The position numbers were made by a program, and so were the translations under genes. Under the pieces are notes generated by a model. That model did no database searches. It was not told the DNA's origin and was given only the letters and a program-made list of their open reading frames with translations. Shown piece by piece: positions 6,516 to 59,675 of a stretch of 64,000 nucleotides of DNA. The first letter of the stretch is position 1. Every line of letters starts with the position of its first letter. Source of the stretch: Patescibacteria group bacterium (GTDB lineage: Bacteria > Patescibacteriota > Patescibacteriia > Patescibacteriales > UBA12465); NCBI GenBank assembly GCA_050943055.1, contig JBMNOL010000001.1, positions 15,750-79,749 on the forward strand, read 5' to 3'.

Positions 6516-6740
6516 TTATTTTTTCTTTTTTGGAGCGGCCTTTTTAACTGCTTTTTTAGGAGCAACTTTTTTCGGGGCGGCTTTTTTAACCATCTTTTTC
6601 ACTGCTTTTTTAGGAGCAGCCATCTTTACAACTTTTTTAGGAGCTGCTTTTTTAACCACCTTTTTAACTGCTTTTTTAGGAGCAACTTTTTTCGGGGCGG
6701 CTTTCTTCACAACTTTTTTAGCCGGTTTATTTGCGGGCAT
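6516..6740 (-). CDS. histone H1-like / KAAPKK-repeat basic DNA-binding protein
   Basis: 74 aa from the second Met. AGGAGGTG lies 6 nt upstream of that ATG; the first Met of the track ORF includes the SD. The protein is almost entirely K/A/P/V repeats (KKAAPKKVAPKKAVKKVV x3), and the DNA is a tandem repeat. Confidence 0.6.
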   Translation of the reverse strand: MPANKPAKKVVKKAAPKKVAPKKAVKKVVKKAAPKKVVKMAAPKKAVKKMVKKAAPKKVAPKKAVKKAAPKKKK

Positions 6741-6853
6741 ATTTTCACCTCCTTTCAATTGGAACTAATTTAAAATTTTTTTTAAAAAAAATTACATCGA
6801 CCGAAAAACTTATTCTAATTATACATCCAGATGAAAACGATAGCAATGCTTTT

Positions 6854-8233
6854 TTATTTTTTTAAACGTGCAAAAAAATATTTTTCCAATTCTGAAATTT
6901 TAATTCTCTCTTGAGTCATCGTATCACGATCACGAACAGTTACCGTCTCATCTTCCAAACTATCAAAATCAACGGTGATGCAAAACGGTGTACCAATTTC
7001 ATCTTGACGCCGGTAACGCTTGCCCACATTGCCATTATCATCAAACTCACAAGAAAATTGTGAGCGTAAATTATTATAAATTTTTTGAGCCGCTGCCACT
7101 AACTCCGGTTTATTTTTGAGAAGGGGAAAGACCGCAATCGTGACCGGCGCTAAATCGGCCGGCAATTTTAAAACCACTCTAGTTTCTTTTTCCGAAACAG
7201 TTTCTTCGTGATAAGCAGAAAGTAGGGTCACTAAAAAACAGCGATCTAAACCAAAGCTGGGTTCTAAAACATGAGGCGTGACATGACGATTAGTAGTAGC
7301 TTCAAAATATTCCAACTTTTGATTAGAAAATTCACTGTGTTGTTTTAAATCAAAATCGCCGCGATGAGCTAAACCACACAGTTCTTTAAAGCCACCAAAA
7401 GGCATGTCATACTCTAAGTCAACCGTCTTGCGGGAGTAGTGCGATAATTTTTCTTGGGGATGTTCATAGCGCCGAATTTTTTTAGAGTCAACCCCTAAAT
7501 CATCAACAAAAAAATGTTCCTGCTCCGCCAAAAGAGAAGCAAACAGTGGCTGCCAGTCTTTTTCCGGATCAATAAAATATTCTAATTCCATTTGTTCAAA
7601 TTCGCGAGTTCGAAAAATAAAATTACCGACAATAATCTCATTGCGAAAGGCTTTACCAATTTGCGCAATACCAAAGGGCAGCTTCGGACGCATCACATCA
7701 ACAACATTTTTAAACTCGGCAAAAATAGCGCCCGCTGTCTCCGGACGCAAATAGACCATTTCTTCAACACCATTCATCTCCGTTTTAAACATCATGTTAA
7801 AAAATCTGACCGCGCTCCAATTCTTTGCTCCGCAAGCGGGACAAGCAATTTCTAGCAACGCCTTATTTAAAGCGTCTAAATCACCTTCTAAATCTTGACC
7901 AGTGGCTTCTAAAACTAAATGATCAGCGCGCCAACGCTTACGGCATTTTTTACAATCAACCATGGCATCATTAAAACCACCGACGTGACCGCTGGCTTCC
8001 CATAACCGTGAGGGTAAAATAATCGGACCATCTAAACCATAAACTTCATCCCGACTAGAAACAAAACGATTCCACCATTTCTGTTTTATTTTATTTTTTA
8101 GAGTTACGCCGTAAGGGCCATAACTATAAGCCCCGGACAAACCGCCATAAATTTCCCCGGCCGGAAAAACAAAGCCGCGCCGCTTACAAAGAGAAACAAT
8201 TTTTTCCATTAAATCATTAGTAGCTTCTTTCAT
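6854..8233 (-). CDS. glyQS: glycine--tRNA ligase (class II, alpha2 homodimeric type)
   Basis: 459 aa. The N-terminus MKEATNDLMEKIVSLCKRRGFVFPAGEIYGGLSGAYSYGPYGVTLKNKIKQKWW is diagnostic of dimeric GlyRS. Confidence 0.9.
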   Translation of the reverse strand: MKEATNDLMEKIVSLCKRRGFVFPAGEIYGGLSGAYSYGPYGVTLKNKIKQKWWNRFVSSRDEVYGLDGPIILPSRLWEASGHVGGFNDAMVDCKKCRKRWRADHLVLEATGQDLEGDLDALNKALLEIACPACGAKNWSAVRFFNMMFKTEMNGVEEMVYLRPETAGAIFAEFKNVVDVMRPKLPFGIAQIGKAFRNEIIVGNFIFRTREFEQMELEYFIDPEKDWQPLFASLLAEQEHFFVDDLGVDSKKIRRYEHPQEKLSHYSRKTVDLEYDMPFGGFKELCGLAHRGDFDLKQHSEFSNQKLEYFEATTNRHVTPHVLEPSFGLDRCFLVTLLSAYHEETVSEKETRVVLKLPADLAPVTIAVFPLLKNKPELVAAAQKIYNNLRSQFSCEFDDNGNVGKRYRRQDEIGTPFCITVDFDSLEDETVTVRDRDTMTQERIKISELEKYFFARLKK

Positions 8234-10081: not shown

Positions 10082-11152
10082 ATGTCTATCCATCGACCCA
10101 TTTTGAGCGCCTCCTGGCGCTTGGCAACGCGCCGAAAAAAACTCTGGGTTTTTGGTTTTTTTGCCCTCCTGGTTTTTATCGGTGGCGAATACCAGATTAT
10201 TAATCAATCTTTAAATAGTGGCTGGGGCGCTAATATTTATGAACGTCTTCTTGCCAGTAGCAGCTTTTCACCGGAACTCTGGAGCGCACTTCTTGAAGCT
10301 CTAAGCGTTGACTGGCGCACCAGTTTAGCGGTTATTATTTTGATTCTTCTGGTTGCCGGTCTCTTATTCGCGGTTCTTTGGCTCGCGGTTAAATCGCAAA
10401 TTGCCTTAATTCGTTGGGCCAAAAAAGATCACGCGGGCGAAGGCGATGAGGAAATTAGTTTGTGGGATGCCTTCACAGTCAAAGATGGTCGGTTTTGGCG
10501 CGTTTTAGCGGTCGGTGTTTTGGTAGAAATTATTATTTTTGCGGTCGGCGTCTTTTTAAGTCTGCCTTTAATTTATCTGTATTTTAAAAACTCTCTCTGG
10601 GCTATCGCCGCTTACTCCTTATTCTTCTTAATTTTGATTCCGGTCGCCGTTTCCTGCTCACTCTTAGCTAAATACGCCATGGCCGAAATAGTTTTAAACA
10701 AAAAAGGGTTCACTGCCGGCGTCATTAGTGCTGTTGAGCTATTTAAAAAGAATTGGTTGGTTAGCTTAGAGATGGCTTTGATTCTTTTCTTTATCAACTT
10801 TACCGTTAGCTTTATAATTCTCTTCCTCTTAACTTTTGTAGCCTTCCCAATTATGCTAACTTTGATGATCTTTGGCCTAGCCCTCCCGCTGGCATTACTG
10901 ATTCTTACTTGTTTTCTCCTGATAGTTTCCGTCGCTTCTTTCTTGATGACTTTCCAAACTACCGCTTGGACCAATCTCTACTTGGAAATTAAAGAACACG
11001 GTGCGCCCGCTAAAATTGAAAGAATTTTTGAAAAAGGTAAAAGCCCTAAAAAACCTAAGGCGGACAAGGCTCCTGACAAAACTACCAAAGAACCCGCTTC
11101 TAAAAAGCCCCGCCTTACCACCAAAAAAACTACTCCTAAGAAAAAATCCTAA
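10082..11152 (+). CDS. polytopic membrane protein with Lys/Pro-rich C-terminal tail (function unknown)
   Basis: 356 aa with 6-8 hydrophobic helices and a C-terminal KKPKADKAPDKTTKEPASKKPRLTTKKTTPKKKS tail. It is immediately upstream of the tandem ATPase gene (4-nt gap). An extended -10 TGcTACAAT sits upstream. Confidence 0.5.
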   Translation: MSIHRPILSASWRLATRRKKLWVFGFFALLVFIGGEYQIINQSLNSGWGANIYERLLASSSFSPELWSALLEALSVDWRTSLAVIILILLVAGLLFAVLWLAVKSQIALIRWAKKDHAGEGDEEISLWDAFTVKDGRFWRVLAVGVLVEIIIFAVGVFLSLPLIYLYFKNSLWAIAAYSLFFLILIPVAVSCSLLAKYAMAEIVLNKKGFTAGVISAVELFKKNWLVSLEMALILFFINFTVSFIILFLLTFVAFPIMLTLMIFGLALPLALLILTCFLLIVSVASFLMTFQTTAWTNLYLEIKEHGAPAKIERIFEKGKSPKKPKADKAPDKTTKEPASKKPRLTTKKTTPKKKS

Positions 11153-11155
11153 GCT

Positions 11156-14100
11156 ATGAGTCTGAGCTCCATTGACAATTTAATTACCGACGAGGAGCCG
11201 GAAGAAGGCTCACCTTTAGATAACTTTTCTCGAAAACAGAAAGAAATTAAAGTGCGCGAAATCGAACGCGAAGCGGAAGGGCGAGCCCGACTCCTCGGGC
11301 TTCCTTATATTAATCTAGATAGTTTTCCGATTAGCGGCGATGCTTTAGGTTTAATAGAGGAAATGAAGGCTCGCGATTTAAACTTGGTTTGCTTTTTTTA
11401 TGACGGCAAAGATTTTAGATTAGGGACCACTAACCCCACTACCGAAGTAAAAGAATTTGCCGAAGAGCTCCAAAAAAAATTATACGCCAATGGGGTTTTA
11501 TTTTTTATTTCCGAAAATAGTTTACAACACGCTCTTGAGCTTTACAAAAACCTGCCAAAAGTCACCCCTTACACGGGAACGGTCGAAATCAGCCCCCAAA
11601 AATTAGTAGAGTTCCAGGAAGACCTGGCTGATTATCGCAAGCTAAACGAACGGATCAACGAAGTTAATATCAGTGATGTTATTACTTTAATTTTGGCGGC
11701 TGCTATTCGTTCCGGATCTAGTGATATTCATATTGAAGCGGAAGCTCGCGGCTCGGTTATTCGCCTCCGCATTGATGGTGTTTTACACGAAGCGGCAGTT
11801 ATTACTGGTGAGAAGTGGCGACGAATAGCTACCCGTCTAAAAATTCTCGCTAAAGCAAAAATTAATATCACCGACCAGCCTCAGGATGGTCGTTTTAGTG
11901 TTCGCTTTAACGATCGCAAGCTTGATGTCCGCTGCTCTTTTTTACCAACAGCTTTTGGTGAGAGTGTGGCGCTGCGCCTACTCGACTCCTCCGCCCAATC
12001 TTTATCTTTTGAGCGCCTCGGTTTACGAACGGAAGTTTTAAAAATACTGAAAGCGCAAATCAAGAAACCAAACGGCATGATTTTAACCGCTGGTCCGACC
12101 GGCTCCGGAAAAACGACGACTCTTTATGCGATTTTAAACGAATTAAATAAGCCGAATATAAAGATTATTACTCTAGAAAACCCGATTGAATATCAGTTAC
12201 CGGGGATTAACCAGAGTCAAATTTCTGAAGATAAGGGCTATACTTTTGCCGAGGCCTTACGCTCGGTCTTGCGCCAAGATCCAAATATTTTAATGGTTGG
12301 CGAAATCCGCGATTCGGAAACAGCTAAGATTGCTTTACAATCTTCAATTACTGGCCATTTAGTTTTATCAACCATACATACCAATGATGCCGCGGGCGTG
12401 ATTCCGCGCTTACTAGATTTAGAAGTTGAACCTTATCTACTGCCACCGGCTCTAAACGTCGTTATCGGTCAACGTTTAGTGCGCCGGCTCTGTCCGCACT
12501 GCCGCGAATCTCACGAATTGAGTAATCTAGAAAAAGAACAAGTTAATAAAATTATTGGGGTCATTTCACCAAAGTCGGGCATAAGCGTCCCCGACCAGTT
12601 GCCTCCTCTCTGGAAAGCAGGCAAAGGTTGCCCAGAATGCAGTTATACCGGATACCATGGCCGAATTGGAATTTACGAACTGTTTACGATGGATGAAAAA
12701 ATAAAACAGTTAACCATTGATCGGGCGCCGTCTTTTAAAATTCTGCAACAAGCCATTGAGAATGGAATGATCACCATGCTTCAAGATGGTATTTTAAAAT
12801 GTTTTGAAGGTATTACTTCAATTGAAGAGGTTTATCGTGTAGTCGGTGATTTTGATTATATCAACGAAATCTACGATATCGTTATTTCTCAAACTATTGG
12901 TCGCGGTCTAATCATCAAGGAGGCTGACCTTACCCAAGCGAAAGAAACCCCGGTTGATGTTAAGACGCTTTCAGAACAGGTTAAAGTAATATCGCCCCGA
13001 GAAATTGTTAATTTGATTATGTCGCTAGCGATTGTTAAAGACGCGGGCGATGTTCACATTGAACCAACCGATAATTTAGTTAAAGTTCGTTTTCGAATTG
13101 ATGGCGTCTTACACGACATTGTTAATCTCCCCAAAACTTCCTATTTGCCGGTTTTAGCGGAAATGAAGATTTTAGCCGGCTTCGAAACCAACGTTAAGCG
13201 CGCCACTCTTGATGGCCGCTTTAGCTTGCATCTGCCCCAACAAAAAATGGACTGCCGCATTTCTATTATCTCTGGCGGCTACGGGGAAACGATTGTAATT
13301 CGTTTATTATCGGCGGCCGCGGTGAATTTAGATTTAGAAAAACTAGGTGTCAATGGTCCTTCTTTTGATTATTTGACTAAGGCGATGTCTAAGACTAAGG
13401 GCATTATTATTACCACCGGACCAACCGGCTCCGGTAAAACCACCACCCTCTACGCAATTTTGAATAAGTTAAATCGGCCCGATATTAAAATTATCACTGT
13501 TGAAGATCCAATTGAGTATCAACTACCAGGGACCATTCAAACTCAGATTGATACCGAACGGGGCTACACTTTTGCCTCGGCCATGCGCTCCTTGCTACGT
13601 CAAAATCCAAACATCATGATGATTGGCGAAATCCGCGATGCGGAAACCGCCAAAATTGCGATTGAAGCGGCCTCAACGGGGCACTTAGTGCTCTCGACGA
13701 TTCACGCTAATTCGGCGGCAGGAGCGATTTCTCGTTTCTCCGGTTTAGGAGTTGAGCGCCAAGCGCTGGCTAACACCTTAGAGTTTTCTATCGGCCAACG
13801 CCTGGTCCGTCGTCTTTGTAAATATTGCCGCCAGCCCGCACACATCGACGAGGAAACTCTCAGCCACGTACGCAGCATTTTATTACAAATTAAAAATCCT
13901 AAAATTAAAATCCCCCAAGATTTAATATTTTATACCGCTCCTGGTTGTCCGCACTGCAACCATATTGGCTACAAAGGAAGAGTGGGGATCTATGAGACTA
14001 TCACTACTACACCCACCATCATGAAACTGATTCAAGATAACCTCATTACCGATTATGAAATTGAGCAAGCGGCGATTGCGGAAGGAATGGTGCCAATTGT

Positions 14101-14167
14101 AGTTGATGGCATTTTAAAAGCTTTAGCCGGAGAAACCAGTTTAGACGAAATTTTTAGAGTAATTTAA
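11156..14167 (+). CDS. tandem-duplicated PilB/GspE-family secretion ATPase (two complete T2SS-E ATPase modules fused in one 1003-aa protein)
   Basis: Module 1 has a GSPII_E N-terminal domain, Walker A GPTGSGKTTTLYAILNEL, Walker B/Asp box LMVGEIRDSETA, His box GHLVLSTIHTND and a tetracysteine CPHC...CPEC. Module 2 has an N2-like domain, Walker A GPTGSGKTTTLYAILNKL, IMMIGEIRDAETA, GHLVLSTIHANS and CKYC...CPHC. Confidence 0.85.
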   Translation: MSLSSIDNLITDEEPEEGSPLDNFSRKQKEIKVREIEREAEGRARLLGLPYINLDSFPISGDALGLIEEMKARDLNLVCFFYDGKDFRLGTTNPTTEVKEFAEELQKKLYANGVLFFISENSLQHALELYKNLPKVTPYTGTVEISPQKLVEFQEDLADYRKLNERINEVNISDVITLILAAAIRSGSSDIHIEAEARGSVIRLRIDGVLHEAAVITGEKWRRIATRLKILAKAKINITDQPQDGRFSVRFNDRKLDVRCSFLPTAFGESVALRLLDSSAQSLSFERLGLRTEVLKILKAQIKKPNGMILTAGPTGSGKTTTLYAILNELNKPNIKIITLENPIEYQLPGINQSQISEDKGYTFAEALRSVLRQDPNILMVGEIRDSETAKIALQSSITGHLVLSTIHTNDAAGVIPRLLDLEVEPYLLPPALNVVIGQRLVRRLCPHCRESHELSNLEKEQVNKIIGVISPKSGISVPDQLPPLWKAGKGCPECSYTGYHGRIGIYELFTMDEKIKQLTIDRAPSFKILQQAIENGMITMLQDGILKCFEGITSIEEVYRVVGDFDYINEIYDIVISQTIGRGLIIKEADLTQAKETPVDVKTLSEQVKVISPREIVNLIMSLAIVKDAGDVHIEPTDNLVKVRFRIDGVLHDIVNLPKTSYLPVLAEMKILAGFETNVKRATLDGRFSLHLPQQKMDCRISIISGGYGETIVIRLLSAAAVNLDLEKLGVNGPSFDYLTKAMSKTKGIIITTGPTGSGKTTTLYAILNKLNRPDIKIITVEDPIEYQLPGTIQTQIDTERGYTFASAMRSLLRQNPNIMMIGEIRDAETAKIAIEAASTGHLVLSTIHANSAAGAISRFSGLGVERQALANTLEFSIGQRLVRRLCKYCRQPAHIDEETLSHVRSILLQIKNPKIKIPQDLIFYTAPGCPHCNHIGYKGRVGIYETITTTPTIMKLIQDNLITDYEIEQAAIAEGMVPIVVDGILKALAGETSLDEIFRVI

Positions 14168-14170: not shown

Positions 14171-14746
14171 ATGCTTAATAAGAAATTTTTTGCTGATTTA
14201 ATTGCTAATTATCGTGACCAATCCGAATCACGACGAGAGATTATCGCCGCCACCGCTCCAGTGTTATTTGCGGCCAAAACAGCCATCTTCTCTCTACACC
14301 GAGGCGAAGAAGAAAAGGCGCGCCAATATTTAGAAACGGCCACAACCACTCTAAAAACTTTACAAACAGACTATTCGATTAAACGACTAGAAGAAGAAGG
14401 TACTTACCGAGCGGCGGTTGAAGAATTTGCTGAAGCCTCCTTCTTGGAACAAGTAGTTTTAAAAAATACTTTAAGTGCTAATCCTGAAGTCACCTTAAAC
14501 CACGAAGCTTACTTGGGTGGCTTATGTGATTTAGTTGGCGAGTTAGTCCGCTTGGCAACCAACAGGGCCGCGGCCGGACAACTTGAAGCGCCCGCGGAAT
14601 TAAAAATCTTAGCTGACGAAATCCTGGCGACTTTAGCGCCGGCAAATTTTACCAGCTATTTGCGAACAAAATACGACCAAGCTAATAGCCACCTGCGCAA
14701 ACTTGAACAGATGGCTTACGAAATTCGTTTACGTCAAAACACATGA
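14171..14746 (+). CDS. translin-family protein (bacterial homologue)
   Basis: 191 aa. The segment NHEAYLGGLCDLVGELVRLATNRAAAGQLE matches the conserved translin/TRAX core (compare human YLLGVADLTGELMRLAI). The protein is all-helical and sits 4 nt after the ATPase gene. Confidence 0.6.
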   Translation: MLNKKFFADLIANYRDQSESRREIIAATAPVLFAAKTAIFSLHRGEEEKARQYLETATTTLKTLQTDYSIKRLEEEGTYRAAVEEFAEASFLEQVVLKNTLSANPEVTLNHEAYLGGLCDLVGELVRLATNRAAAGQLEAPAELKILADEILATLAPANFTSYLRTKYDQANSHLRKLEQMAYEIRLRQNT

Positions 14747-15237
14747 GCTTAGTAGCAATTTTTTCCGATCTCCATGACAATCTAAGTAACTTAGATTTAT
14801 TTTTAACTAAGGCCCGCGCCCAAAAAGTCGCGGCCCTTATTTTTACCGGCGACCTAACCAGTGCCGAAACCTTAGATTATCTCGTCTCGCAGTGGGACAG
14901 GCCGCTCTATTTAGTTAGTGGCAATGCTGATTTTTTTCGAAGTAATGATGTTAAAAAACACCCCCACCTTATTTATGCGGAGAATTATTTAGATTTTACT
15001 TACGAGAATTTTCACTTCTTAATTGCTCACAAGCCAACAGATTTAAAAAAAATTCTCGTCACTAACACTGTTTACGATTTCGCTTTTTATGGTCACACGC
15101 ACCGGCCCTGGATTAAAAATGAAGGCGGTGTAATTATCGCCAACCCCGGCAACTTAAAAGATGGCTTTGGCCAAGCCACCTACGCTCTTTTAGACACAAG
15201 GAGTGGTCACTTAAAATTAAAAAAACTGAGCGATTAA
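14743..15237 (+). CDS. metallophosphoesterase (YfcE/MJ0936-like calcineurin-type phosphoesterase)
   Basis: Motifs DLHDN, GDLTS, GNAD and GHTHRPW. The ATGA start overlaps the translin gene stop. Confidence 0.8.
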   Translation: MSLVAIFSDLHDNLSNLDLFLTKARAQKVAALIFTGDLTSAETLDYLVSQWDRPLYLVSGNADFFRSNDVKKHPHLIYAENYLDFTYENFHFLIAHKPTDLKKILVTNTVYDFAFYGHTHRPWIKNEGGVIIANPGNLKDGFGQATYALLDTRSGHLKLKKLSD

Positions 15238-15243: not shown

Positions 15244-15270
15244 CGGCTCCAGTCAGGAGCCGTTTTTTTA
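15244..15270. terminator. bidirectional terminator
   Basis: CGGCTCC-agtc-AGGAGCCG hairpin flanked by A-run and T-run. It serves the + operon and uvrA on the minus strand. Confidence 0.7.
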
Positions 15271-17727
15271 TTTCAATTTTCGTAGATATTGACCGGTATA
15301 GCTTTCTTTTACTTTCGCTACTTGAGCAGGAGTCCCGGCAGCAACCAGGTAGCCTCCCGCCTTCCCGCCTTCTGGTCCCAAATCAATCAACCAATCACAA
15401 GTTTTAATCAAATCTAAATTATGTTCAATCACCAAAACGGTATTCCCTTGCTCAACTAAAAGATTAAGAACTTTTAAGAGGCGATCAATATCGGCAAAAT
15501 GCAGGCCGGTGGTGGGCTCGTCTAAAATATAAAGAGTTCGGCCGGTTGAACGTCTCGCCAGCTCTGTCGCCAGTTTAATTCGTTGAGCTTCACCGCCAGA
15601 AAAAGTAGTCGCAGCTTGACCCAGTTTTATGTAACCCAAACCAACTTGATCTAAGATTTCTAACTTATGATGCAACGCGCTTTGATCACGAAAAAAAGAA
15701 AGCGCTTCTTTAACTGTTAAGTTGAGGACTTCAAAAATATTTTTTCCCTGGTATTTAACGGCGAGAACTTTAGGTTTAAAGCGCTTACCACCACAAGCTT
15801 CGCAATTCAAATAAACATCGGCCAAAAATTGCATCTCTACTTTTATCAGGCCATCACCGCGGCAGGTTTCACAACGACCACCGGGAACATTAAAAGAAAA
15901 ATCTCCCGCCGTTAAACCGCGGGTTTTCGATTCTGGTAAATTCGCATAGAGGTCGCGAACATAACTAAAAATACCCGTATAGGTAGCCGGATTAGATCGA
16001 GGTGTCCGCCCAATTGGTGACTGATCAATAGCGATCACCTTATCAATATTTTCCAGGCCGATGATTTTTTTATGTTTACCTGGGACTGCCTTAGCTCGAT
16101 AAAAATGACGATTTAAAGCCTTGGCCAAAATATCATTCATTAAAGTAGATTTCCCCGACCCCGAGACTCCGGTAATCGCCACTAATTTACCGAGGGGTAA
16201 GCTCACATCAATATTTTTTAAATTATGTTCGCTCGCACCAATAATCTCTAAGAATTTACCCGTCCCTAAATGATCGCGACCGCGCGGTTGAATTTTTTTA
16301 CGACCGGCTAAATAATCGCCGGTTAAAGACTTCGGGCAGTTAACAATCTCACTGGGAGGGCCGGCATAAATAATCTCACCGCCATACTCACCTGCCCCAG
16401 GGCCAATATCAATTAAGTAGTCCGCTGATCGCATCATTTGCGCATCATGCTCGACGACAATCACAGTATTACCGTTATCACGCAGGCTCTTCAAAATTTC
16501 AATCAGTTTCTGATTATCCCTTTCGTGCAAACCAATTGAAGGTTCGTCTAAAATATAGATGACGCCACTTAGCCCGGCTCCGGCTTGAGTGGCCAGGCGT
16601 AAACGTTGAGCTTCGCCACCAGAAAGACTTGCCGCCCCGCGAGATAAACTTAAATAGCCTAAACCAACGTGTTGTAAAAATTTTACCTTTTTTAAAACCT
16701 CGGTTAGAATTGGCTGGGTTACGGCCGTTAAGCCAGTTTTCGCCGCTAACCATTTATTGAGTACTTCAGAAAAAGAATCAAGATCTAAATCGGTTAAAGC
16801 GGCTAAATTATAATTATGAAATTTTACTGCTAAGGCTTCGGGGTTTAAACGCGCGCCCTGACAAGCGCGGCACGTAAAAGACAACATCGCTTTTTCAAGC
16901 TCCTGTTTAACAAAGTTAGATCGCGTTTCTTGATAACGTTTATTTAAGTAAGCAATTACGCCGTCAAATTTAGAGTCGCCATACAATAAAGCTTTTTTTT
17001 GCTCTTCTTTTAAATCTTTGATTTCCGTATCCAAAGTAAAACCCTCTCGAGCGGCCAGTGCCGCCAGGTCTCGAAGTAATTCTTGCTGACGGTTAGAATT
17101 ATTGAAAGACAAAACTTTAATTGCTCCTTGAGCCAAACTTAATTTTTGATTAAAAATTAAACTTTCTTCCACCAATAATTCTGTTCCCAGTCCGGTACAA
17201 GTTGGGCAGGCCCCGGCTGTAGAGTTAAAAGAAAAATCGCGAGCTTCAAGCGGTAAACGGCAATAGCCGCAAGTCGGACACTCCCAACTGCCATTAATCT
17301 TAGTGACATCTGGACTATCTTTTTGGCACTTAACTTTTTTTAATTTAGCGCCACAATGAGGGCAAAAAGGAACGCCGGCCCGAGCATAGAGCAGGCGCAG
17401 ATAATCATAAATTTCAGTAATAGTCCCAACGGTTGAGCGCGGATTATTGCCTATTGTGCGCTGATCAATAGAAATTGCGGGTGATAAACCCTCAATAATA
17501 TCCACCTCCGGACGATCACTTAAATTCATAAATTGACGGGCGTAAGAAGATAGTGATTCAACATAACGACGCTGCCCTTCAGCATAAATCGTGTCAAAAG
17601 CCAATGAGGATTTGCCGGAACCAGACAAACCGGTAATCACCGTTAATTGATTACGCGGAATCGTTAGGCTTAAATTTTTTAAATTATTCGCACGTGCCCC
17701 TTTTATTTTTATAAAATCAACCGCCAT
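15268..17727 (-). CDS. uvrA: excinuclease ABC subunit A (UvrA), short 819-aa form
   Basis: Two ABC modules: Walker [10 protein letters not shown] and GVSGSGKST, signature LSGGEAQRL and FSGGEAQRI, Zn-finger cysteine pairs. It is about 120 aa shorter than E. coli UvrA in the first half. Confidence 0.9.
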
Positions 17728-40526: not shown

Positions 40527-41897
40527 ATGTTAAAAAAACCTCTTTTGCTCGCATCTTTATTAATTTTTTTTGTAGGAGCTGGTTTCGGCTGTCAAACAAA
40601 AATAGACGAAGCCACTTTAAAAGCTTCAGAGCCAATCAAAATTGTTTTTTGGCAAGCTTTTGATGATTCGGATGCTTTTTCAGAAGCAATCAAAAAGTAC
40701 CAAGAGCTACACCCCAACGTTACCATTGAATATAAAAAATTCCGTTACGAAGAGTATGAAAATCAGCTTTTAAACGCTTGGGCTGAGGACCGGGGGCCGG
40801 ATATTTTTGCCATCCATAATACTTGGGTCAAAAAATACCAACCAAAAATTACCCCCTTACCAGAATACACTTCAATTGCTTTTTTCGTAGAAAGTACGGG
40901 TTTTAAAAAAGAACTGGTTCCCGAATTAAGAAGTATTAGAAGTTTAAGCACTAGAGAACTTAAAAATAATTTTGCCGATGTTGTGGCTACAGACGCTATT
41001 TTAGAAGATGGCTTAATTTATGGCTTACCTTTATCGGTAGACACCTTAGCTCTTTATTACAATCGCGATCTACTAAATAGTGCTGGAATCGTGGAGCCGC
41101 CCCGTTACTGGAACCGAGAATTCCAGCAAGCCGTTAAAAAGATGACTAAACAGGATCCTAAAAAAGGTTTAGTCCAATCAGGAATTGCTTTAGGAACGGC
41201 GAATAATATTAATCGGGCCAGCGACATTTTGGCGGTCTTAATGCTACAAAATGGCGCCACTATAATTGATAACAATCGAGTCGTCTTTAACCAGGTCCCC
41301 CCTTATATTACTAGCGGCTACAACCCCGGACTAGAAGCCCTTCGTTTTTATACCGACTTTGCCAACCCCAACAAAGAAGTTTATTCCTGGAATGCTGACC
41401 AAGAGAATGCTTTAGATGCCTTCACTAGTGGCAATCTGGCGATGATGCTGGGCTATTCTTTTAACTTGGAGCAAATTCGCTCGCAAGCGCCAAAATTAAA
41501 CTTCGGCGTCGCCAAACTGCCGCAAATAGAGGGTAATCAGCTCCAAATAAATATGGCTAATTATTGGCTCTTAACCGTTTCTAAAAAAAGTGAACATAGT
41601 GATGTGGCCTGGGATTTTATCCAGTTTTTAACTAAAAAAGAAAACGCCGATGTTTACTTAGAAAAAACTGGTAAACCGACTGCTTTAAAAGCTAGTATTA
41701 ATGACCAGAAAAATGATGAATATCTTGGTCCTTTTGCGGAACAAGTCTTAAGCGCTAAAAGTTGGTATCGTGGCCTTAGTGCTCAGGATGCCGAAGCGGC
41801 CATGGGGGAAATGATTAAAAACGCCTTAAATCCTAATTTTAAGATAATAGACGTTTTAAATGATGGGGCGATTAAAGTTCAACAAACAATCCGCTAA
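40527..41897 (+). CDS. ABC-transporter extracellular solute-binding lipoprotein (family 1, sugar-type), orphan
   Basis: Lipobox LLASLLIFFVGAGFGC and SBP_bac_1-like fold features. No permease or ATPase genes are adjacent. Confidence 0.65.
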   Translation: MLKKPLLLASLLIFFVGAGFGCQTKIDEATLKASEPIKIVFWQAFDDSDAFSEAIKKYQELHPNVTIEYKKFRYEEYENQLLNAWAEDRGPDIFAIHNTWVKKYQPKITPLPEYTSIAFFVESTGFKKELVPELRSIRSLSTRELKNNFADVVATDAILEDGLIYGLPLSVDTLALYYNRDLLNSAGIVEPPRYWNREFQQAVKKMTKQDPKKGLVQSGIALGTANNINRASDILAVLMLQNGATIIDNNRVVFNQVPPYITSGYNPGLEALRFYTDFANPNKEVYSWNADQENALDAFTSGNLAMMLGYSFNLEQIRSQAPKLNFGVAKLPQIEGNQLQINMANYWLLTVSKKSEHSDVAWDFIQFLTKKENADVYLEKTGKPTALKASINDQKNDEYLGPFAEQVLSAKSWYRGLSAQDAEAAMGEMIKNALNPNFKIIDVLNDGAIKVQQTIR

Positions 41898-41901
41898 TTA
41901 T

Positions 41902-42300
41902 ATGAAGTTAAAAAAAATTATTCCCCCTCTTCTTTTTCTTGGTTTTATAATCGTCGGGCCAGGGCTTACTCACGCCCAAAGCTTGGTTGATACCACCGAT
42001 CCGGCTTATGCTACCGGAGGTTACACCCTAGATCATATTCGCAATTATTTAATTTATTTAATGTATTTTATTTTAGGTCTCGTAGGCACCCTCTCCTTAG
42101 CAGCTTTTGTTTATGGTGGTATTGTTTTTTTAACTTCGGCCGGCTCCGATCAGAAAGTAAAAAAAGGGAAAGACATTTTAGGAGCAGCGGTAATTGGTTT
42201 ACTAATTGTCTTTTCCAGTGTTTTAATTATTCAAACCCTATTTAATGGCTTAGGAATTAAATGGGACGCCACCAAAGGAACTCTTCCTGATATAAAATAA
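41902..42300 (+). CDS. T4SS-pilin-like (TrbC/VirB2-like, CPR 'pilin') small membrane protein
   Basis: Start moved to the ATG at 41902. Signal peptide, TM helix and the motif GGIVFLTSAGSDQKVKKGKDILGAAVIGLLIV, related to the array at 44410-46972. Confidence 0.6.
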   Translation: MKLKKIIPPLLFLGFIIVGPGLTHAQSLVDTTDPAYATGGYTLDHIRNYLIYLMYFILGLVGTLSLAAFVYGGIVFLTSAGSDQKVKKGKDILGAAVIGLLIVFSSVLIIQTLFNGLGIKWDATKGTLPDIK

Positions 42301-44409: not shown

Positions 44410-44793
44410 ATGAAAAAATTGACAAAACACTTATTGTCTTTGGTGTTACTGCTCTCATTGGTAGCGATCCCAATGACAACCTTGGCGAGTGGCGGATTAA
44501 ATGTAAACGATCTCGGCGTTGATGAAATTGATAACACCTTAGATTTAGGGAGACGCAGCCCAATTGAAACTGTAACTAGATTAATTAACTCAGCTATGAT
44601 CTTCTTAGGCATCATTGCTGTCGGGATTATCTTGGTTGCTGGCTTTAAGTGGATGACAGCTGGAGGTAGTGAGGATAAGGTTAGCGAAGCTCAAAAGTTA
44701 ATGTCCTCTGGTGTTGTTGGCTTAATCATCATCTTAGCCGCTTGGGGTATTGCCTACTTCATTTTGGAAATGGCAGTTGATGTTACCCAATAA
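44410..44793 (+). CDS. T4SS-pilin-like protein, paralog 1
   Basis: Signal peptide, TM helix and the motif GFKWMTAGGSEDKVSEAQKLMSSGVVGLIIILAAWGIAYF. Confidence 0.7.
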   Translation: MKKLTKHLLSLVLLLSLVAIPMTTLASGGLNVNDLGVDEIDNTLDLGRRSPIETVTRLINSAMIFLGIIAVGIILVAGFKWMTAGGSEDKVSEAQKLMSSGVVGLIIILAAWGIAYFILEMAVDVTQ

Positions 44794-44898
44794 AAAAATT
44801 TTCAGAAATCGATTCTTGAAAAACGGTCCCTCATTTTTTTATGGGGGGTACCGCCGCGAGCCGGAAATAGTTGCGACTCGCAGCCGTAATTAGTTTTT

Positions 44899-45318
44899 AT
44901 GAAAACTTTTCGCATTTTTTTGCTACTTGCTATTTTCTCTTTTGTTGGCCTGTTTTTACCGGCGACTTCTGGAGCGACCAATAAAGGGATAGAAAAAACC
45001 TTAGAGGGTTTAAATGAGACTGTTAAGGGAGAAGGGGCGGATGGTGGAATTGGTGCCTATAAATCGCAAGTAGATGAAGATCCTCAGAATATTTTAACGA
45101 AACAAGTCACTGATATTATCTCCTTGATTCTTTCTTTTCTTGGGGTTATTTTCTTAGTCATTACTATTTATGCCGGTTTTCTCTGGATGACGGCCAACGG
45201 CAATGACACTCAAATTAAGAAAGCTAAAGATTTATTAATGAATGCTATTGTTGGTCTAGTTATTATTACCGCCGCCTACTCACTAACCGCCTTTGTCGGC
45301 AATCAGCTAACTCGTTAA
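44899..45318 (+). CDS. T4SS-pilin-like protein, paralog 2
   Basis: GFLWMTANGNDTQIKKAKDLLMNAIVGLVIITAAYSLTAF. Confidence 0.7.
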   Translation: MKTFRIFLLLAIFSFVGLFLPATSGATNKGIEKTLEGLNETVKGEGADGGIGAYKSQVDEDPQNILTKQVTDIISLILSFLGVIFLVITIYAGFLWMTANGNDTQIKKAKDLLMNAIVGLVIITAAYSLTAFVGNQLTR

Positions 45319-45319
45319 C

Positions 45320-45736
45320 ATGAAGCGCTTTATCACCACCATTCTTATTGTCAGTTCTTTATTTTTTGGCTTAAGCACCCAAGCTTCTTATAATTTTATC
45401 AGTGATAGTGGCCTAAAAAAAACTGGCGAAAATTTAGGCTATCAAACCGACCAAAACACCGACACTTTTATTGAGTCTTACATTGGTCAAATACTTACCC
45501 TTGTTTTTTCGATTTTAGGCTTAATTTTCTTTGTCTTAATTATCTATGCCGGCTTTTTGTGGATGACCGCCCAAGGTAACGATAGTAAGGTCAGTGAAGC
45601 AAAAAAGATTTTGACTAATGCGATTATTGGTTTGGTTATTGTTCTCGCCTCCTACGCTATCAGTTATTTCGTCTTTAGCGCCTTAACCCCAGCGGTGGAA
45701 ACAGCCACCGAAACGACAGCAGTGGTTGGAGAATAA
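45320..45736 (+). CDS. T4SS-pilin-like protein, paralog 3
   Basis: GFLWMTAQGNDSKVSEAKKILTNAIIGLVIVLASYAISYF. Confidence 0.7.
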   Translation: MKRFITTILIVSSLFFGLSTQASYNFISDSGLKKTGENLGYQTDQNTDTFIESYIGQILTLVFSILGLIFFVLIIYAGFLWMTAQGNDSKVSEAKKILTNAIIGLVIVLASYAISYFVFSALTPAVETATETTAVVGE

Positions 45737-45743
45737 TTATTAT

Positions 45744-46148
45744 ATGCTTAAGAATCAAAAAATTTTCACCCTTTCTCTGGCTTTGCCCCTTTTACTGAAT
45801 AGTCTTTTATTTTTAGCCCCGGCCAGCGCGACTACCACCACTACTGGCGTCAAGGGCGCTTTTTCTTCCGAAGGAAAATTAGGAGACTTTGCTAAAGATG
45901 TTGGTTATAATCAAGAACCACAAACCCCCGAATACTATGTCGGTTTGGTTATCAATATTATCTTCTCACTTTTGGGAGTTATTGCTATCACCTTAATAAT
46001 CTTTAATGGTTTTAAGTGGATGACGGCGGGCGGTAATGATAATAAAGTTAAGGAAGCCCGGGGGGGATTAACTAGCTCAATTCTCGGATTACTAATTATT
46101 TTGGCTAGTTATGCTATCACCTTTTTTGTCTTTAATATTTTTACTTAA
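45744..46148 (+). CDS. T4SS-pilin-like protein, paralog 4
   Basis: ATG at 45744; the track's TTG start at 45726 overlaps the previous gene. Motif GFKWMTAGGNDNKVKEARGGLTSSILGLLIILASYAITFF. Confidence 0.7.
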   Translation: MLKNQKIFTLSLALPLLLNSLLFLAPASATTTTTGVKGAFSSEGKLGDFAKDVGYNQEPQTPEYYVGLVINIIFSLLGVIAITLIIFNGFKWMTAGGNDNKVKEARGGLTSSILGLLIILASYAITFFVFNIFT

Positions 46149-46157
46149 AAACTGTTT

Positions 46158-46562
46158 ATGAAAAAAATTCCTTCTTGGTTAATAGTTATTTTTTTAACCA
46201 CCATCCTGATTATCCCGGGTTTAGTTTTTGCCGGTAACAATATTATTAAAGACAGTGCCTCGCCCCTAGAACGCCTTAACAATGCGGCCACCAATTATGG
46301 CCCTTTTTCTCAAACTGCTACTGAAACCTCGGCGGCCTCCATTATCGGCTTAGTAATTAATGTTATCTTGGGAATACTAGGAGTTATTTTCCTCGTTCTA
46401 ACTATTTTAGCGGGTATTCAATGGATGACGGCCGGCGGCAATGATGCCAAAGTAAAGGAAGCTCAAGGATCAATCACCAGAGCGGTTACAGGATTAGTCG
46501 TAGTTGTCTCTTCTTACGCTATCTGGCTTTTTATTCAAATGGCTTTTTTATCAAAAATATGA
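46158..46562 (+). CDS. T4SS-pilin-like protein, paralog 5
   Basis: GIQWMTAGGNDAKVKEAQGSITRAVTGLVVVVSSYAIWLF. Confidence 0.7.
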   Translation: MKKIPSWLIVIFLTTILIIPGLVFAGNNIIKDSASPLERLNNAATNYGPFSQTATETSAASIIGLVINVILGILGVIFLVLTILAGIQWMTAGGNDAKVKEAQGSITRAVTGLVVVVSSYAIWLFIQMAFLSKI

Positions 46563-46972
46563 AACATCTTTTTTATTCCTTTATTGGTACCACTCTTCTT
46601 ATTGTTCCAAGCATTGTCCTGGCCTCAACAACACCCGCCTCTGGTCTTAATACTGAAAAAATGGATGCTCAGACCCAAGCTCTTACTCAGGCAGCCGGTT
46701 TAGGACAAAACACTAGCTTAAGCTTTATTATTGCTACTCTTATTCAGGTCCTATTAGGATTTTTAGGAATAATTTTTTTAATCCTGACAATTGTTTCCGG
46801 TTTTAAATGGATGACTGCTCAAGGCAATGAAGATACAATTAAAAAAGCCCAAGGAACTTTAATGAATGCTATTATTGGCTTAGTAATTGTCCTTGCCGCT
46901 TATATTATTACCACTACTTTATTTAAATTACTGCCTTTTTCGGGCGGTAGTGGCGGCGTTACCGGCGGCTAA
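46559..46972 (+). CDS. T4SS-pilin-like protein, paralog 6
   Basis: GFKWMTAQGNEDTIKKAQGTLMNAIIGLVIVLAAYIITTT with a Gly-rich C-terminus. ATGA overlap with paralog 5. A bidirectional terminator lies at 46995-47025. Confidence 0.7.
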   Translation: MKHLFYSFIGTTLLIVPSIVLASTTPASGLNTEKMDAQTQALTQAAGLGQNTSLSFIIATLIQVLLGFLGIIFLILTIVSGFKWMTAQGNEDTIKKAQGTLMNAIIGLVIVLAAYIITTTLFKLLPFSGGSGGVTGG

Positions 46973-55237: not shown

Positions 55238-56179
55238 TTAATAAACGACTTTTGATTTCTTTATTTGATTTCTAGTTTGTAAATATTTATAAGCGGACAG
55301 TGCGGCCGTGGTCGCTTGTCCAACAGCCACCGTTATTTGTTTGTATTCGCTTTTATTGGTAACATCTCCAGCCGCGAACAAGCCAGGAGTTTTAGTTTCC
55401 ATTAAATTATTAACAACAAGCTGTAAACTATCATCACGATCAACTAAATCAGCTACAACATCAGTGTGAGCAATGCGACCAATTTCAATAAAGACACCAT
55501 CGACTGCTAACTCTTTTACTTCACCACCTGGTAATTCATAAACAATTTTTTCAACCTTACTGTCGCCGGCAATTTCTTTAACCACCGCATCGGCAATAAT
55601 AGTAATATTTTCTCGTTCTTTAACCTCAGTGATTAGAGATTCAAAAGCCTTAAAGTTTTGGTTGCGGTGCACCAGATAAACCTGGTTGGCAATTTTGGAA
55701 AGCATCTCCGCTGAATCAAAAGCGGAGTTGCCACCACCAATCACCACCACCGTTTTCCCGCGATATAAAGGGCCGTCACAATTAGCACAATAGGAAACGC
55801 CGTGCCCCATAAGCTCCACTTCTCCAGCGACCGCTAAACGGCGCGGCGATAAACCGATAGTTAAAATAACCGTCTTTGCTAAAAATTCTTCTTTATTTGT
55901 ATAAACTTTAAAAGTTTCATCGGCCATTTTTTCTAAACGCACCACTTCCGCTGTTTTGAGTTCGGCACCAAAAGAAAGCGCTTGATCGTGTAAGCGCTCA
56001 ATAAATTCAAAATTACTAATATTTTTAAAACCAGGATAGTTTTCAATTTCGGAAGCCCAAACTACCTGACCCCCTAATTGCTTACCGATAATCAAAGTTT
56101 TCATTTCTCGACGAGTTGAAAAAATAGCCGCCGTTAAACCGGCTGGACCTGAGCCAACAATTATTGTGTCGTATAACAT
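55238..56179 (-). CDS. trxB: thioredoxin-disulfide reductase
   Basis: FAD site MLYDTIIVGSGPAGLTAA, redox-active CANCDG, and NADPH site VVIGGGNSAFDSA. Confidence 0.85.
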   Translation of the reverse strand: MLYDTIIVGSGPAGLTAAIFSTRREMKTLIIGKQLGGQVVWASEIENYPGFKNISNFEFIERLHDQALSFGAELKTAEVVRLEKMADETFKVYTNKEEFLAKTVILTIGLSPRRLAVAGEVELMGHGVSYCANCDGPLYRGKTVVVIGGGNSAFDSAEMLSKIANQVYLVHRNQNFKAFESLITEVKERENITIIADAVVKEIAGDSKVEKIVYELPGGEVKELAVDGVFIEIGRIAHTDVVADLVDRDDSLQLVVNNLMETKTPGLFAAGDVTNKSEYKQITVAVGQATTAALSAYKYLQTRNQIKKSKVVY

Positions 56180-56208
56180 AAAAGGAAAAGAATTATTTCT
56201 TTAAGTTG

Positions 56209-56239
56209 AAATTATAACCTTTTTTTAATTTCTTTTCAA
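56209..56239 (-). promoter_or_regulatory. canonical sigma-70 promoter for trxB
   Basis: Minus strand: -35 TTGAAA (56234-56239), 17-nt spacer, -10 TATAAT (56209-56214), about 23 nt 5' UTR before the trxB ATG. Confidence 0.6.
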
Positions 56240-56266
56240 ATTTAAGCCTTTATTTTTATTATTTCA

Positions 56267-56298
56267 CTAATATTAGCTATTCTTACTAATATTAGCTA
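56267..56298. repeat. two direct copies of a 13-nt motif, each containing a perfect 10-bp palindrome
   Basis: CTAATATTAGCTA at 56267-56279 and 56286-56298. CTAATATTAG is its own reverse complement. The centre-to-centre distance is 19 bp, and the motifs lie 30-60 bp upstream of the trxB -35. Confidence 0.4.
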
Positions 56299-57002
56299 AA
56301 TAATAAGTGTTCTTTGAAAAACAATATGATTAGAAAAAATTTAAGAATTTAAACCTCTTAAAAAATATTTAACTTAGAGAAAATTAGTAACAAAAAACTC
56401 TTTAAAAAATAATAATTTTAAGAAAAGTTTTTAAAGAAGAATCCCTCCCTTTTTTCTAAAGCCTAATAACTAAAAAACTAACTCACTTTTAAATTTTATT
56501 TTCAACAAAAAGCTTAACTCAAATATATTGTATTTTTAAACTATCTAATTTTAACCTTTTTGAGAAAATCCTTATCTAAATATATTTTAATAAATTACAA
56601 TTCTTTTTTGGGGAATTTTTAAAATCTATACCATTTTAATTAAAAATACTTTTTATGTTCCTTAAGGAACTTGACTATTTTTTAAAAGGGTAAAAATGTC
56701 TTTAAAAAAATAAAGAGATAAGTCCAGAGTGTTGTCGACTTATCTCCTTAAAAAATATTTTCTTTATTTTTTCTTTAGATTACCTTTAATTTAAAATCAA
56801 GAGATTATCTTAACTATCACCATCACCTTAGTCTGGGCATAAATCTATTTTTTAAATCAAAAAAGGGGAAAGATCAAAAAATAAATTAAACCAAACAATT
56901 ATTTATTAAACCAAAAAAGACTCTTAATTCTTAAAACCCACCCCTTAATTACCCAAAAAACTTCAACTTTTCTAAAATTATTTGCTAATATTAATTAAAT
57001 TG

Positions 57003-57076
<74 letters not shown>

Positions 57077-57155
57077 ATTTTAAAATTTAACACGACAATC
57101 ATAACTAATTTAATAAAATTAGTAAAGACTGCCTTTGTATTTTTTACAGGATCGG

Positions 57156-57227
57156 CGTCTTCGTCAGGAATCGAACCTGAATCTAGAACTTAGGAGGTTC
57201 TTGTTCTATCCATTGAACTACGAAGAC
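57156..57227 (-). tRNA. tRNA-Arg (anticodon CCU)
   Basis: Reverse complement GTCTTCGTAGTTCAATGGATAGAACAAGAACCTCCTAAGTTCTAGATTCAGGTTCGATTCCTGACGAAGACG with discriminator G. Confidence 0.75.
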
Positions 57228-57355
57228 CAGGAATTCTTTCTTTAGTATGCTTTTTTTATTATTTTAAGTCAATTATTTTTTGACAAATGACCACCTATCG
57301 CTTAGAATTAAGTTGTTATTAATAACAACCCGCGCACGCTTGGGTTTTTAAAATT

Positions 57356-57763
57356 ATGTTTAACAAAGAAATGAAACTAGAAAAATTTAAGGATGCCGAA
57401 ACCGTTATTGGCTCGTCAGTTTTTGTTAAGGGTGACTTCCATGGCACCGGAAACATTATCATTGAAGGTAGTCTTGAAGGTAGCTTAAAAACTGATGCTG
57501 ATGTCTATATCGGCGAAAAAGCCCAAGTTACTGCTACTATTGAAGCGGCCAATGCCACTATCAACGGCCAAATTAACGGTACGGTAAAAGTTAGTCAGTA
57601 TCTAGCCTTAGGAAGCACCGCCAAAATTACTGGTGATGTTAATTTTCAAGAACTTTCTGTTGTTAGGGGTGCTCTGATTAATGGTCGCCTAAGCAGTCAT
57701 GGTGCTGGTCGCAATAAAAAAAATGCCCCCGATAAAAAAGATGTTTTAGTAGAAGACGAGTAA
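57356..57763 (+). CDS. bactofilin-family cytoskeletal protein
   Basis: DUF583 beta-helical repeats: VIGSSVFVKGDFHGTGNIIIEGSLEGSLKTDADVYIGEKAQVTATIEAANATINGQINGTVKV. Confidence 0.85.
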   Translation: MFNKEMKLEKFKDAETVIGSSVFVKGDFHGTGNIIIEGSLEGSLKTDADVYIGEKAQVTATIEAANATINGQINGTVKVSQYLALGSTAKITGDVNFQELSVVRGALINGRLSSHGAGRNKKNAPDKKDVLVEDE

Positions 57764-57786
57764 TTTATTGATTAGAAGGGGCGCTT

Positions 57787-58539: not shown

Positions 58540-58571
58540 AAAAAACCGAACAGTCAAGTTCGGTTTTTAAA

Positions 58572-59324: not shown

Positions 59325-59336
59325 ATGTTTTATAAA

Positions 59337-59675
59337 TTATTTTAAACCACTTTTTACTAACAAATCATTGAGATTTTTATGTAAGTCTTCGTAAGATAAG
59401 TTTTTAATTTCCGGCTTAGTAACAATAACTAGATCGTAACCTTGCTTTAAGGTTTTATTTTCCTGATAAAATATCGCCCGCAGGCGACGCTTATAAAGAT
59501 TGCGAAGAACCGCTAATTTACTTACCTTTACCCCCACCAAAATACCCACACGATTAAATCCTAAATCATTATTAAAATATTTTAAACCTAAAGAACCGCT
59601 ATAAACAGAGCGGCCTTCTTTAAAAATGGAGCTAAACTCCCGGTTTTTTGTTAATCGATTTTTTGCGGGTAACAT
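59337..59675 (-). CDS. rnpA: ribonuclease P protein component
   Basis: 112 aa. Basic RnpA pattern LTKNREFSSIFKEGRSVYSGSLGLKY...RVGILVGVKVSKLAVLRNLYKRRLR. Confidence 0.8.
   Translation of the reverse strand: MLPAKNRLTKNREFSSIFKEGRSVYSGSLGLKYFNNDLGFNRVGILVGVKVSKLAVLRNLYKRRLRAIFYQENKTLKQGYDLVIVTKPEIKNLSYEDLHKNLNDLLVKSGLK

Follow-up and report, generated by a model that had tools for sequence, protein, structure and literature searches.

A gene for two fused PilB/GspE-family ATPase modules is conserved in Patescibacteria

Introduction

Can the motor of a type IV pilus or of a type II secretion system be built from polypeptides that each carry two ATPase modules? The question is raised by a 1003-amino acid (aa) open reading frame (ORF) at positions 11156-14167 (+) of a 64-kb stretch of DNA from a Patescibacteria group bacterium (contig JBMNOL010000001.1 of assembly GCA_050943055.1); the whole 64-kb stretch is referred to here as the window. 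A preliminary description, made from the nucleotide sequence, read this ORF as a fusion of two complete PilB/GspE secretion ATPase modules. Motors of the PilB family are thought to be homohexamers that cycle through C2 states (the CCOCCO pattern), and the coupling of six subunits to the membrane platform is debated. The episymbiotic lifestyle of Patescibacteria depends on surface filaments and DNA uptake.

Tandem-family sequences became public with the GW2011 genomes at the latest, and they carry generic annotations. No mention of a tandem, fused or duplicated PilB or GspE was found in literature searchable as full text, including a 2024 review of PilB and the searchable text of a 2023 review of type 4 filaments (PMC10191384). 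The remark in the preliminary description that such an architecture has not been described for type IV pilus or type II secretion motors thus agrees with the searchable literature, and it agrees with the Protein Data Bank (PDB) as well.

Results and Discussion

Two complete modules in a single reading frame

The reading of the 1003-aa ORF as a fusion is borne out by its exact, uninterrupted frame and by two near end-to-end matches to the Pfam T2SSE profile (PF00437). The translated sequence has the order N1D-(N2D-CTD)-junction-(N2D-CTD). The single N1D, probably of the GSPII/MshEN type, covers residues ~20-135 (11213-11560, +). Module 1 (M1; 11663-12844, +) follows, with its N2D at residues 170-290 and its CTD at 291-563. 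An inter-module junction (residues 564-612; 12845-12991, +) consists of a conserved motif and then a variable helical linker, and module 2 (M2; 12992-14164, +) has its N2D at residues 613-732 and its CTD at 733-1003. The PF00437 match in M1 spans residues 171-561, which is profile positions 7-370 of 370. With each half searched separately, as the preliminary description had proposed, half 1 scores 386 bits and half 2 scores 368 bits over profile positions 10-370, against a cut-off of 24.9; the second half is also a complete ATPase domain. The two halves align with 44% identity over 421 residues (E = 4e-123).

The N1D was described beforehand as an N-terminal GSPII domain present on the first module only. 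The restriction to M1 is supported, and orthologues give matches above the threshold of PF05157 (MshEN). As to its identity, the N-terminal region of the 1003-aa protein itself remains below that Pfam threshold (17.2 bits against 23.1). The PilB equivalog profile TIGR02538, however, aligns over positions 34-562 of 564, the alignment with the Geobacter PilB of the PDB starts at query residue 45, and the region is modeled as an alpha/beta fold with a predicted local distance difference test score (pLDDT) of 80-88.

Members of the PilT/VirB11-like GspE/PilB branch carry one N2D-CTD core per polypeptide, and here there are two per chain. Each half alone falls under the cut-offs of the equivalog profiles for PilB (TIGR02538, cut-off 675.65; 462.1 and 398.6 bits), GspE (TIGR02533, cut-off 630.25; 471.5 and 412.1 bits), TfpB, and ComGA (NF041000, cut-off 300; 234.6 and 234.0 bits), and only the summed full-length score, 855 bits, passes that of TIGR02538. 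Since each half is below these cut-offs, the protein is, by its sequence, a member of the GspE/PilB branch to which no named subfamily can be assigned. A retraction ATPase of the PilT/PilU type was considered and rejected: both halves are below the cut-off of TIGR01420 (319.1; 172.9 and 161.8 bits), and a tetracysteine subdomain is present in both modules.

Recurrence of the tandem gene and age of the duplication

A search of 5.8 billion proteins gave intact tandems in more than 120 clusters, from NCBI, JGI, ENA and Logan assemblies. The best 120 clusters, which were examined, are all 1002-1007 aa long and match with 100% query coverage and 63-98% identity; those with names are called "GspE/PulE family protein" or "PilB" and come from Ca. 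Falkowbacteria or the Patescibacteria group. With each GTDB species represented by one genome, 209 relatives were detected. The best 80 of these, kept for locus comparisons and referred to below as the 80 species, are all full length with 59-85% identity, and complete chromosomes of ~0.9-1.0 Mb are among them. When ORFs were called anew, an intact frame of 1003-1013 aa was present in 79 of the 80 loci, and the one that is shorter (L004, 929 aa) is at the end of a contig.

These data bear on a trivial explanation, that two adjacent pilB genes were merged by a sequencing or assembly error that hid a stop codon or a frameshift. The preliminary description had proposed to search related genomes for fused versus split genes. 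Nothing was found in favor of an error. Of 80 independent genomes at species level, 79 have the fusion intact, it recurs across assemblies of different origin, and the inter-module junction holds invariant residues. Because of this recurrence and these invariant residues the explanation by error is excluded for practical purposes, its probability being close to nil. The tandem gene is, judged by its recurrence, a genuine and vertically inherited gene of Patescibacteria, whose N2D-CTD core was duplicated long ago.

More distant tandems were sought in a search clustered at 50% identity (1.84 billion representatives), which yielded 15,724 T2SSE-family proteins at E<1e-30. Among the top 150, which were inspected, 14 have two near-complete modules: P0121-P0133 (978-1018 aa, 40-59% identity) and P0138. 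They are followed in the ranking by ordinary PilB-like proteins of ~550 aa with 40-47% identity. Named members of the divergent tandem clusters are from the Parcubacteria group (KKU82539.1, "General secretory pathway protein E") and Ca. Paceibacterota, lineages of the candidate phyla radiation (CPR).

The mean identity between M1 and M2 is 41%, and the identity to single-module PilBs is 44% for M1 and 41% for M2. The duplication must be old, since the two modules are about as similar to each other as either is to single-module PilBs. The preliminary description had suggested dating the event by aligning the halves. A neighbor-joining tree of the modules adds little to the date: M2 sequences of most lineages cluster, and neither the backbone nor the monophyly of M1 and M2 has bootstrap support.

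In the same tree the two modules of P0129 are sisters, as are those of P0130. Independent duplications were rejected for these two, whose context is syntenic with other CPR tandems (TsaE/PolA upstream, RuvB downstream); either gene conversion or a renewed duplication in place is the probable explanation. Two further sequences, P0189 and P0208, nest among the tandem modules, and their contigs of 1.9-2.6 kb have no visible neighbor genes. They were not accepted as split-gene versions, as contigs of this size show no adjoining genes.

Among the matches examined, P0138 is the only clearly independent tandem duplication. This 1047-aa protein (L086, 8001-11144) comes from a metagenome-assembled genome (MAG) outside the CPR, GCA_964384625.1, and resembles the Patescibacteria protein in being a tandem; in the module tree its two modules group as sisters (bootstrap 100/100). 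It differs in displaying an N-terminal T2SSF domain (the PilC/GspF cytoplasmic domain, 78.5 bits) instead of an N1D. In its M1 the Walker A Lys is gone (GSGTT), as is an Asp-box Glu, while the second T2SSE module is intact, and its gene lies next to ECF sigma/anti-sigma, sulfatase and MoxR/BatA genes.

Both modules retain the catalytic motifs

All motifs that the preliminary description listed for both halves (Walker A, Walker B, His box and tetracysteine site) were located. Walker A (GPTGSGKT) is at residues 313-320 in M1 and 755-762 in M2, Walker B (GEIRD) at 382-386 and 824-828, and the His box (TGHLVLSTIH) at 399-408 and 841-850. CxxC pairs are at 446/449 and 492/495 in M1, and at 888/891 and 931/934 in M2. 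The N2D arginine motif DGRF is at 244-247 and 686-689. One label needs correction: GEIRDxETA had been labeled Asp-box/Walker B, but it is Walker B alone, and the Asp box is a separate motif, LENPIE at 340-345 in M1 and VEDPIE at 782-787 in M2.

Conservation of these motifs was assessed in the 80 species. In both modules the N2D Arg and the residues that make up Walker A, the Asp box, Walker B and the His box are approximately invariant, and the tetracysteine residues are 100% conserved. All of these are retained in both modules even in the divergent lineages, at 40-46% identity. The uncorrected ratio of nonsynonymous to synonymous differences (pN/pS) is ~0.11 for M1, 0.11-0.12 for M2 and ~0.20 for the N1D (0.21) and the junction; it should be noted that pS is near saturation, and the ratio is usable only for comparing regions. 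Positions that are at least 95% conserved number 195 in M1 and 163 in M2, and there are 19 fixed module-specific differences between M1 and M2.

The 19 fixed differences would fit an arrangement in which one module has become a regulatory or structural pseudo-ATPase and hydrolysis is carried out solely by the other. M2 has also diverged slightly more than M1, and in deep lineages non-essential positions of its Walker A vary (GPTGAGKT, GPTSAGKT). Residue 342 in the M1 Asp box of the window's protein is N, as against D in 90% of orthologues, and P0138 shows that degeneration of a module is possible. However, M1 and M2 alike keep the N2D Arg, the Lys/Thr of Walker A, the Glu of the Asp box and of Walker B, and the His box throughout the 80 species and the divergent CPR lineages; the loss of the Walker A Lys from one module of P0138 is not paralleled in the CPR tandem family. 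N342 looks like a tolerated variant because the ENPIE form turns up in either module of several orthologues. Neither module looks like a pseudo-ATPase, because every catalytic motif is kept and purifying selection is equal on the two, and a pseudo-ATPase is accordingly very improbable. The pattern points to two working, mildly specialized ATPase sites, and we infer that both hydrolyze ATP.

Junction and structure models

The junction of the window protein begins with the motif G.F.Y....Y..V.SQT.GRG, in which the columns G564, F566, Y568, Y573, V576, S578, Q579, T580, G582, R583 and G584 are invariant. Divergent CPR tandems have a recognizable form of the motif, "YIEELY...L..RG". An AlphaFold2 model of the tandem monomer, built from an alignment of 63 sequences, has well-modeled domains (mean pLDDT 78.6), with low pLDDT in helix 567-580 of the junction. 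The predicted template modeling score (pTM) is 0.47, and because of this low value the model does not fix the placement of the modules relative to each other.

Compared with solved folds module by module, the top matches are the Geobacter PilB structures 5tsh, 5tsg and 5zfr, with target-normalized template modeling (TM) scores of 0.83-0.86 per module and 44-45% identity. Thermus PilF, GspE/EpsE and BfpD come next, and PilT and DotB are more distant. A sequence search of the PDB likewise gives Geobacter PilB as the best match (E = 1e-102) and returns single-core proteins only. No tandem chain was found in the PDB by sequence or by fold, and the coverage of the model by any one solved chain is about a third at most.

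The PilB of Geobacter metallireducens and G. sulfurreducens (5TSG, 5TSH, 5ZFR, 6OLJ) shares with each module the N2D + CTD fold, the ATPase motifs and the tetracysteine site, and with M1 the probable N1D in addition. It differs from the tandem protein, which has two modules per chain, halves that are below TIGR02538, and a gene outside any pil cluster. GspE/EpsE (1P9R, 4KSR, 4KSS, 4PHT) is similar at E ~1e-94 and has a zinc-binding CTD subdomain and an N1D, which in GspE binds GspL; the tandem architecture and the halves below the TIGR02533 cut-off set the present protein apart. In EpsE the tetracysteine site is described as a metal-binding feature (PMC5061722). A classical type II secretion system is unlikely here because the envelope of Patescibacteria is reported to comprise a single membrane (PMC11809585).

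The unusually long PilF of Thermus thermophilus (6F8L, 913 aa) is similar in size to the tandem protein. Its extra length is of a different kind, consisting of repeated N-terminal GSPII domains before a single ATPase core, and of the query only residues 241-560 align, with chain residues 576-884.

Genomic context

The ATPase gene lies in an operon-like row of four co-directional genes. Upstream is a gene for a polytopic membrane protein (10082-11152, +; 356 aa, ~8 transmembrane segments, Lys-rich tail), whose stop is 4 bp before the ATPase start. A translin-family gene (14171-14746, +; PF01997, 64.5 bits) begins 3 bp after the ATPase stop, and a metallophosphoesterase gene (Metallophos_2; 14743-15237, +; PF12850, 90.6 bits) overlaps it by 4 bp. 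Genes for arginyl-tRNA synthetase, a class II aminoacyl-tRNA synthetase, UvrA, PLD, patatin and TsaD are found in the flanks. In the 80 species the membrane protein gene adjoins the ATPase gene on the same strand in every locus, with a median gap of ~12 bp and mostly <=20 bp; the translin-like gene follows the ATPase gene in 76 of the 80 loci, with gaps mostly <30 bp, and the phosphoesterase gene is present in 74.

Translin is mainly a eukaryotic and archaeal protein. Here a translin-family gene is found in a bacterium, with a position after the ATPase gene that is conserved among the related loci.

The preliminary description had noted that no PilC, PilM or PilT gene is adjacent, and this holds for the entire window: profile searches and a pattern (regex) scan for pilins found no gene for PilC, PilT, PilM, PilD or a type IV pilin within the 64 kb. 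The comparison loci comprised +/-10 kb around each gene, 91 loci with a total of 1.65 Mb, of which 89 are tandem. No pilC, pilM, pilT or pilin gene is found in the 89 tandem loci, and none of the 91 loci has a second T2SSE-like ORF beside the gene or a prepilin-like ORF. The association with PilC, PilM and pilins that characterizes PilB is therefore absent at the level of the locus, in the window and in the 91 loci alike.

In the divergent tandem lineages the neighbors are TsaE, PolA, a DHH-family protein, RuvB/RuvC/YebC and DnaA/DnaN, and never pil genes. TsaE and PolA are repeatedly upstream of the tandem gene, with RuvB/YebC/RuvC downstream (L081-L084, L087-L089); in L084 the RuvC start is 6 bp past the ATPase stop, and in L081-L083 a soluble DHH-family protein is encoded upstream in place of the membrane protein.

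The membrane protein belongs to a fast-evolving family restricted to Patescibacteria, with 36 detectable homologues (in the window at 10082-11152 (+), and in L092 at 6673-7986) and no Pfam or NCBIfam family match. Its members are encoded immediately before the PilB-like ATPase in every case, be the ATPase tandem or single-module. Its mean identity across loci is 35%, versus 64% for the ATPase. The structure model is a helical bundle (pLDDT 76.8, pTM 0.69) with a weak, non-significant resemblance to CTL (choline-transporter-like) and CysZ folds (best E 0.13, TM ~0.36). A cryptic PilC/GspF platform was considered and rejected, there being no T2SSF match and no GspF-like fold.

The closest single-module relative of the tandem, P0142, is likewise encoded outside any pil cluster, near TsaE; the gene directly before it encodes a membrane protein that shows 23% identity over ~360 aa to that of the window. 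The position of P0142 shows that the tandem originated in place from an "orphan" PilB-like paralogue of the CPR, a single-module gene that already stood beside the same membrane protein gene. Divergent tandem lineages lack this membrane protein as a neighbor, so it does not partner the tandem ATPase everywhere.

Many of the loci that are fully syntenic with Patescibacteria come from MAG records named "uncultured Gammaproteobacteria bacterium" (L001, L003-L005, L008-L010 and others; binchicken/SRP co-assemblies). The organism name seems to be a placeholder or a labeling error.

An array of small ORFs in the window was examined as possible type IV pilins. Seven paralogous genes at 41860-42300 and 44410-46972 (+) encode proteins of 127-146 aa with 24-57% mutual identity, a signal peptide, a hydrophobic helix and a "WMTAxG" motif. 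They match PF18895 (T4SS_pilin) with 28-45 bits (threshold 26.6), which places the array (41.8-47 kb) with the VirB2/TrbC-type pilins of type IV secretion, and they were rejected as type IV pilins.

Possible assembly and role of the tandem ATPase

The tandem protein may be a PilB-family extension motor that assembles as a pseudo-hexameric trimer of tandem protomers and drives a type IV filament; taken as a whole, this reading has about an even chance of being correct. The PilB fold and sequence match and the tetracysteine site in both modules, with predicted metal binding, support a motor of the PilB type. Three protomers would join head-to-tail in one pseudo-hexameric ring, (M1-M2)3, with active sites of two classes and one N1D per protomer, three in all. 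In known PilT/VirB11-like ATPases the hexamer is built from rigid packing units, each formed by N2D(n) and CTD(n+1) (PMC6858323). In the (M1-M2)3 ring such N2D(n)/CTD(n+1) units would alternate between intra-chain and inter-chain. The same source reports that all PilB structures are C2 with the CCOCCO pattern, for which rotation is proposed, and that C3 OCOCOC states are found in PilT, FlaI, DotB and archaeal GspE2 (PMC6858323). A strict C2 homohexamer is impossible for a ring in which M1 and M2 alternate. C2 operation would map M1 onto M2, and a rotating CCOCCO state would need every site to be catalytically competent, which would be the reason that neither module has degenerated.

The ring would also match the platform protein. 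According to PMC10191384, the platform protein is an internal Cyt1-Cyt2 duplication and a predicted trimer, which brings six Cyt domains into contact with six ATPase subunits; the 3x2 ring would correspond to this (Cyt1-Cyt2)x3 arrangement. PilC/GspF and its fission products TadB/TadC (PMC10191384) offer a precedent, within the same machine, for 3x2 pseudo-six-fold symmetry reached by internal duplication, fusion and fission, but this concerns the membrane platform and not an ATPase, and no such duplication is known for the motor. A second partial precedent is Acinetobacter baylyi, where two non-identical PilB-family ATPases, PilB and TfpB, are reported to serve one filament system, the second being an additional, phylogenetically distinct motor (PMC8213720). 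There the two are separate genes and polypeptides, whereas here they are covalently fused at a fixed 1:1 ratio. The filament extended by the tandem motor would be a pilus or a DNA-uptake pseudopilus, with its other parts encoded elsewhere in the genome; genes for pilus machinery are reported to be well conserved across Patescibacteria (PMC12206443).

Several observations weigh against such a motor. Each half alone is under the PilB, GspE and ComGA equivalog cut-offs. The window and the 89 tandem loci are devoid of pil genes, and the conserved operon partners are a membrane protein other than PilC, a translin-like protein and a phosphoesterase, replaced elsewhere by DHH, TsaE, PolA and Ruv genes as neighbors. 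The AlphaFold2 monomer leaves the packing of the modules undecided. In the experimentally studied Saccharibacterium TM7x, pilB1 and pilB2 are both within pil clusters, together with pilC, pilM/N/O and pilins (PMC12206443).

The preliminary description had gone further and held that a trimer of dimers is forced by the architecture. That part of the claim does not stand, because tandem ASCE/AAA+ ATPases such as KaiC, p97 and ClpB stack as double hexameric rings, and the monomer model favors no packing. KaiC, p97/NSF and ClpB/Hsp104 resemble the present protein in having two homologous P-loop modules per chain, both often active; they belong to other ATPase clades, and stacking is the usual arrangement of tandem ring ATPases. 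Six protomers could in the same way form coaxial M1 and M2 hexamers with 12 sites, of which only the M1 ring, with its N1Ds, would face the membrane machinery. The ~45-residue junction (564-612) with its conserved motif is long enough to join stacked rings, the N1D is on M1 only, and both modules are conserved, all of which such a double ring would accommodate. However, among the PilT/VirB11-like structures surveyed in PMC6858323 there is no ring-to-ring stacking, and the packing of N2D on the next CTD seen in those structures can be satisfied by a tandem chain within a single ring. A second ring would moreover have no obvious access to the platform protein, and a double ring is thus considered unlikely.

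The genomic context raises a different doubt, as it hints that the tandem gene might lie altogether outside the remit of canonical pilus loci. The ATPase could work with the membrane protein of its operon, and possibly with the neighboring nucleic-acid enzymes, in a role without PilC and pilins, for example in import or processing of nucleic acids or of another substrate. The tight pairing with the membrane protein gene in all 80 species, the same pairing at the closest single-module relative, the translin-like and phosphoesterase genes, the DHH, TsaE, PolA, RuvB and RuvC neighbors in divergent lineages, and the lack of pil genes would all be expected in that case. Against it, the membrane protein is missing from the divergent tandem lineages, evolves much faster than the ATPase and has no significant fold match, synteny in small related genomes may be inherited and not functional, and the zinc site and the probable N1D, typical of PilB/GspE, are kept. 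A role apart from pili is about as improbable as the stacked rings. A more specific version is that the ATPase, the membrane protein, the translin-like protein and the phosphoesterase constitute a previously unrecognized PilB-powered membrane machine, independent of pilins and of the PilC platform, which might serve nucleic-acid import or processing in organisms unable to make their own nucleotides. We regard this as speculative and less probable still.

If the trimer of tandem protomers is correct, the conserved M1-M2 tandem would represent a natural linked-subunit experiment, with two non-identical sites in strict 1:1 alternation, at most C3 symmetry, and N1D docking domains reduced to half. 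Three questions would become testable: does the motor need all six sites to fire, do C3 or pseudo-C2 states function, and is the motor matched to a 3x2 platform? The tandem gene is in addition a core gene of Patescibacteria that is widespread and unstudied.

Other observations in the window

Toward the end of the window (56000-64000) the guanine plus cytosine content drops from ~0.40 to 0.30-0.34. This is probably the replication-origin region, since dnaA (60018-61403) and dnaN (61648-62775) are located there.

A UvrA homologue is encoded at 15268-17727 (-). Its 819 aa, in which a UvrA DNA-binding domain and ABC domains are detected, make it shorter than typical UvrA proteins.

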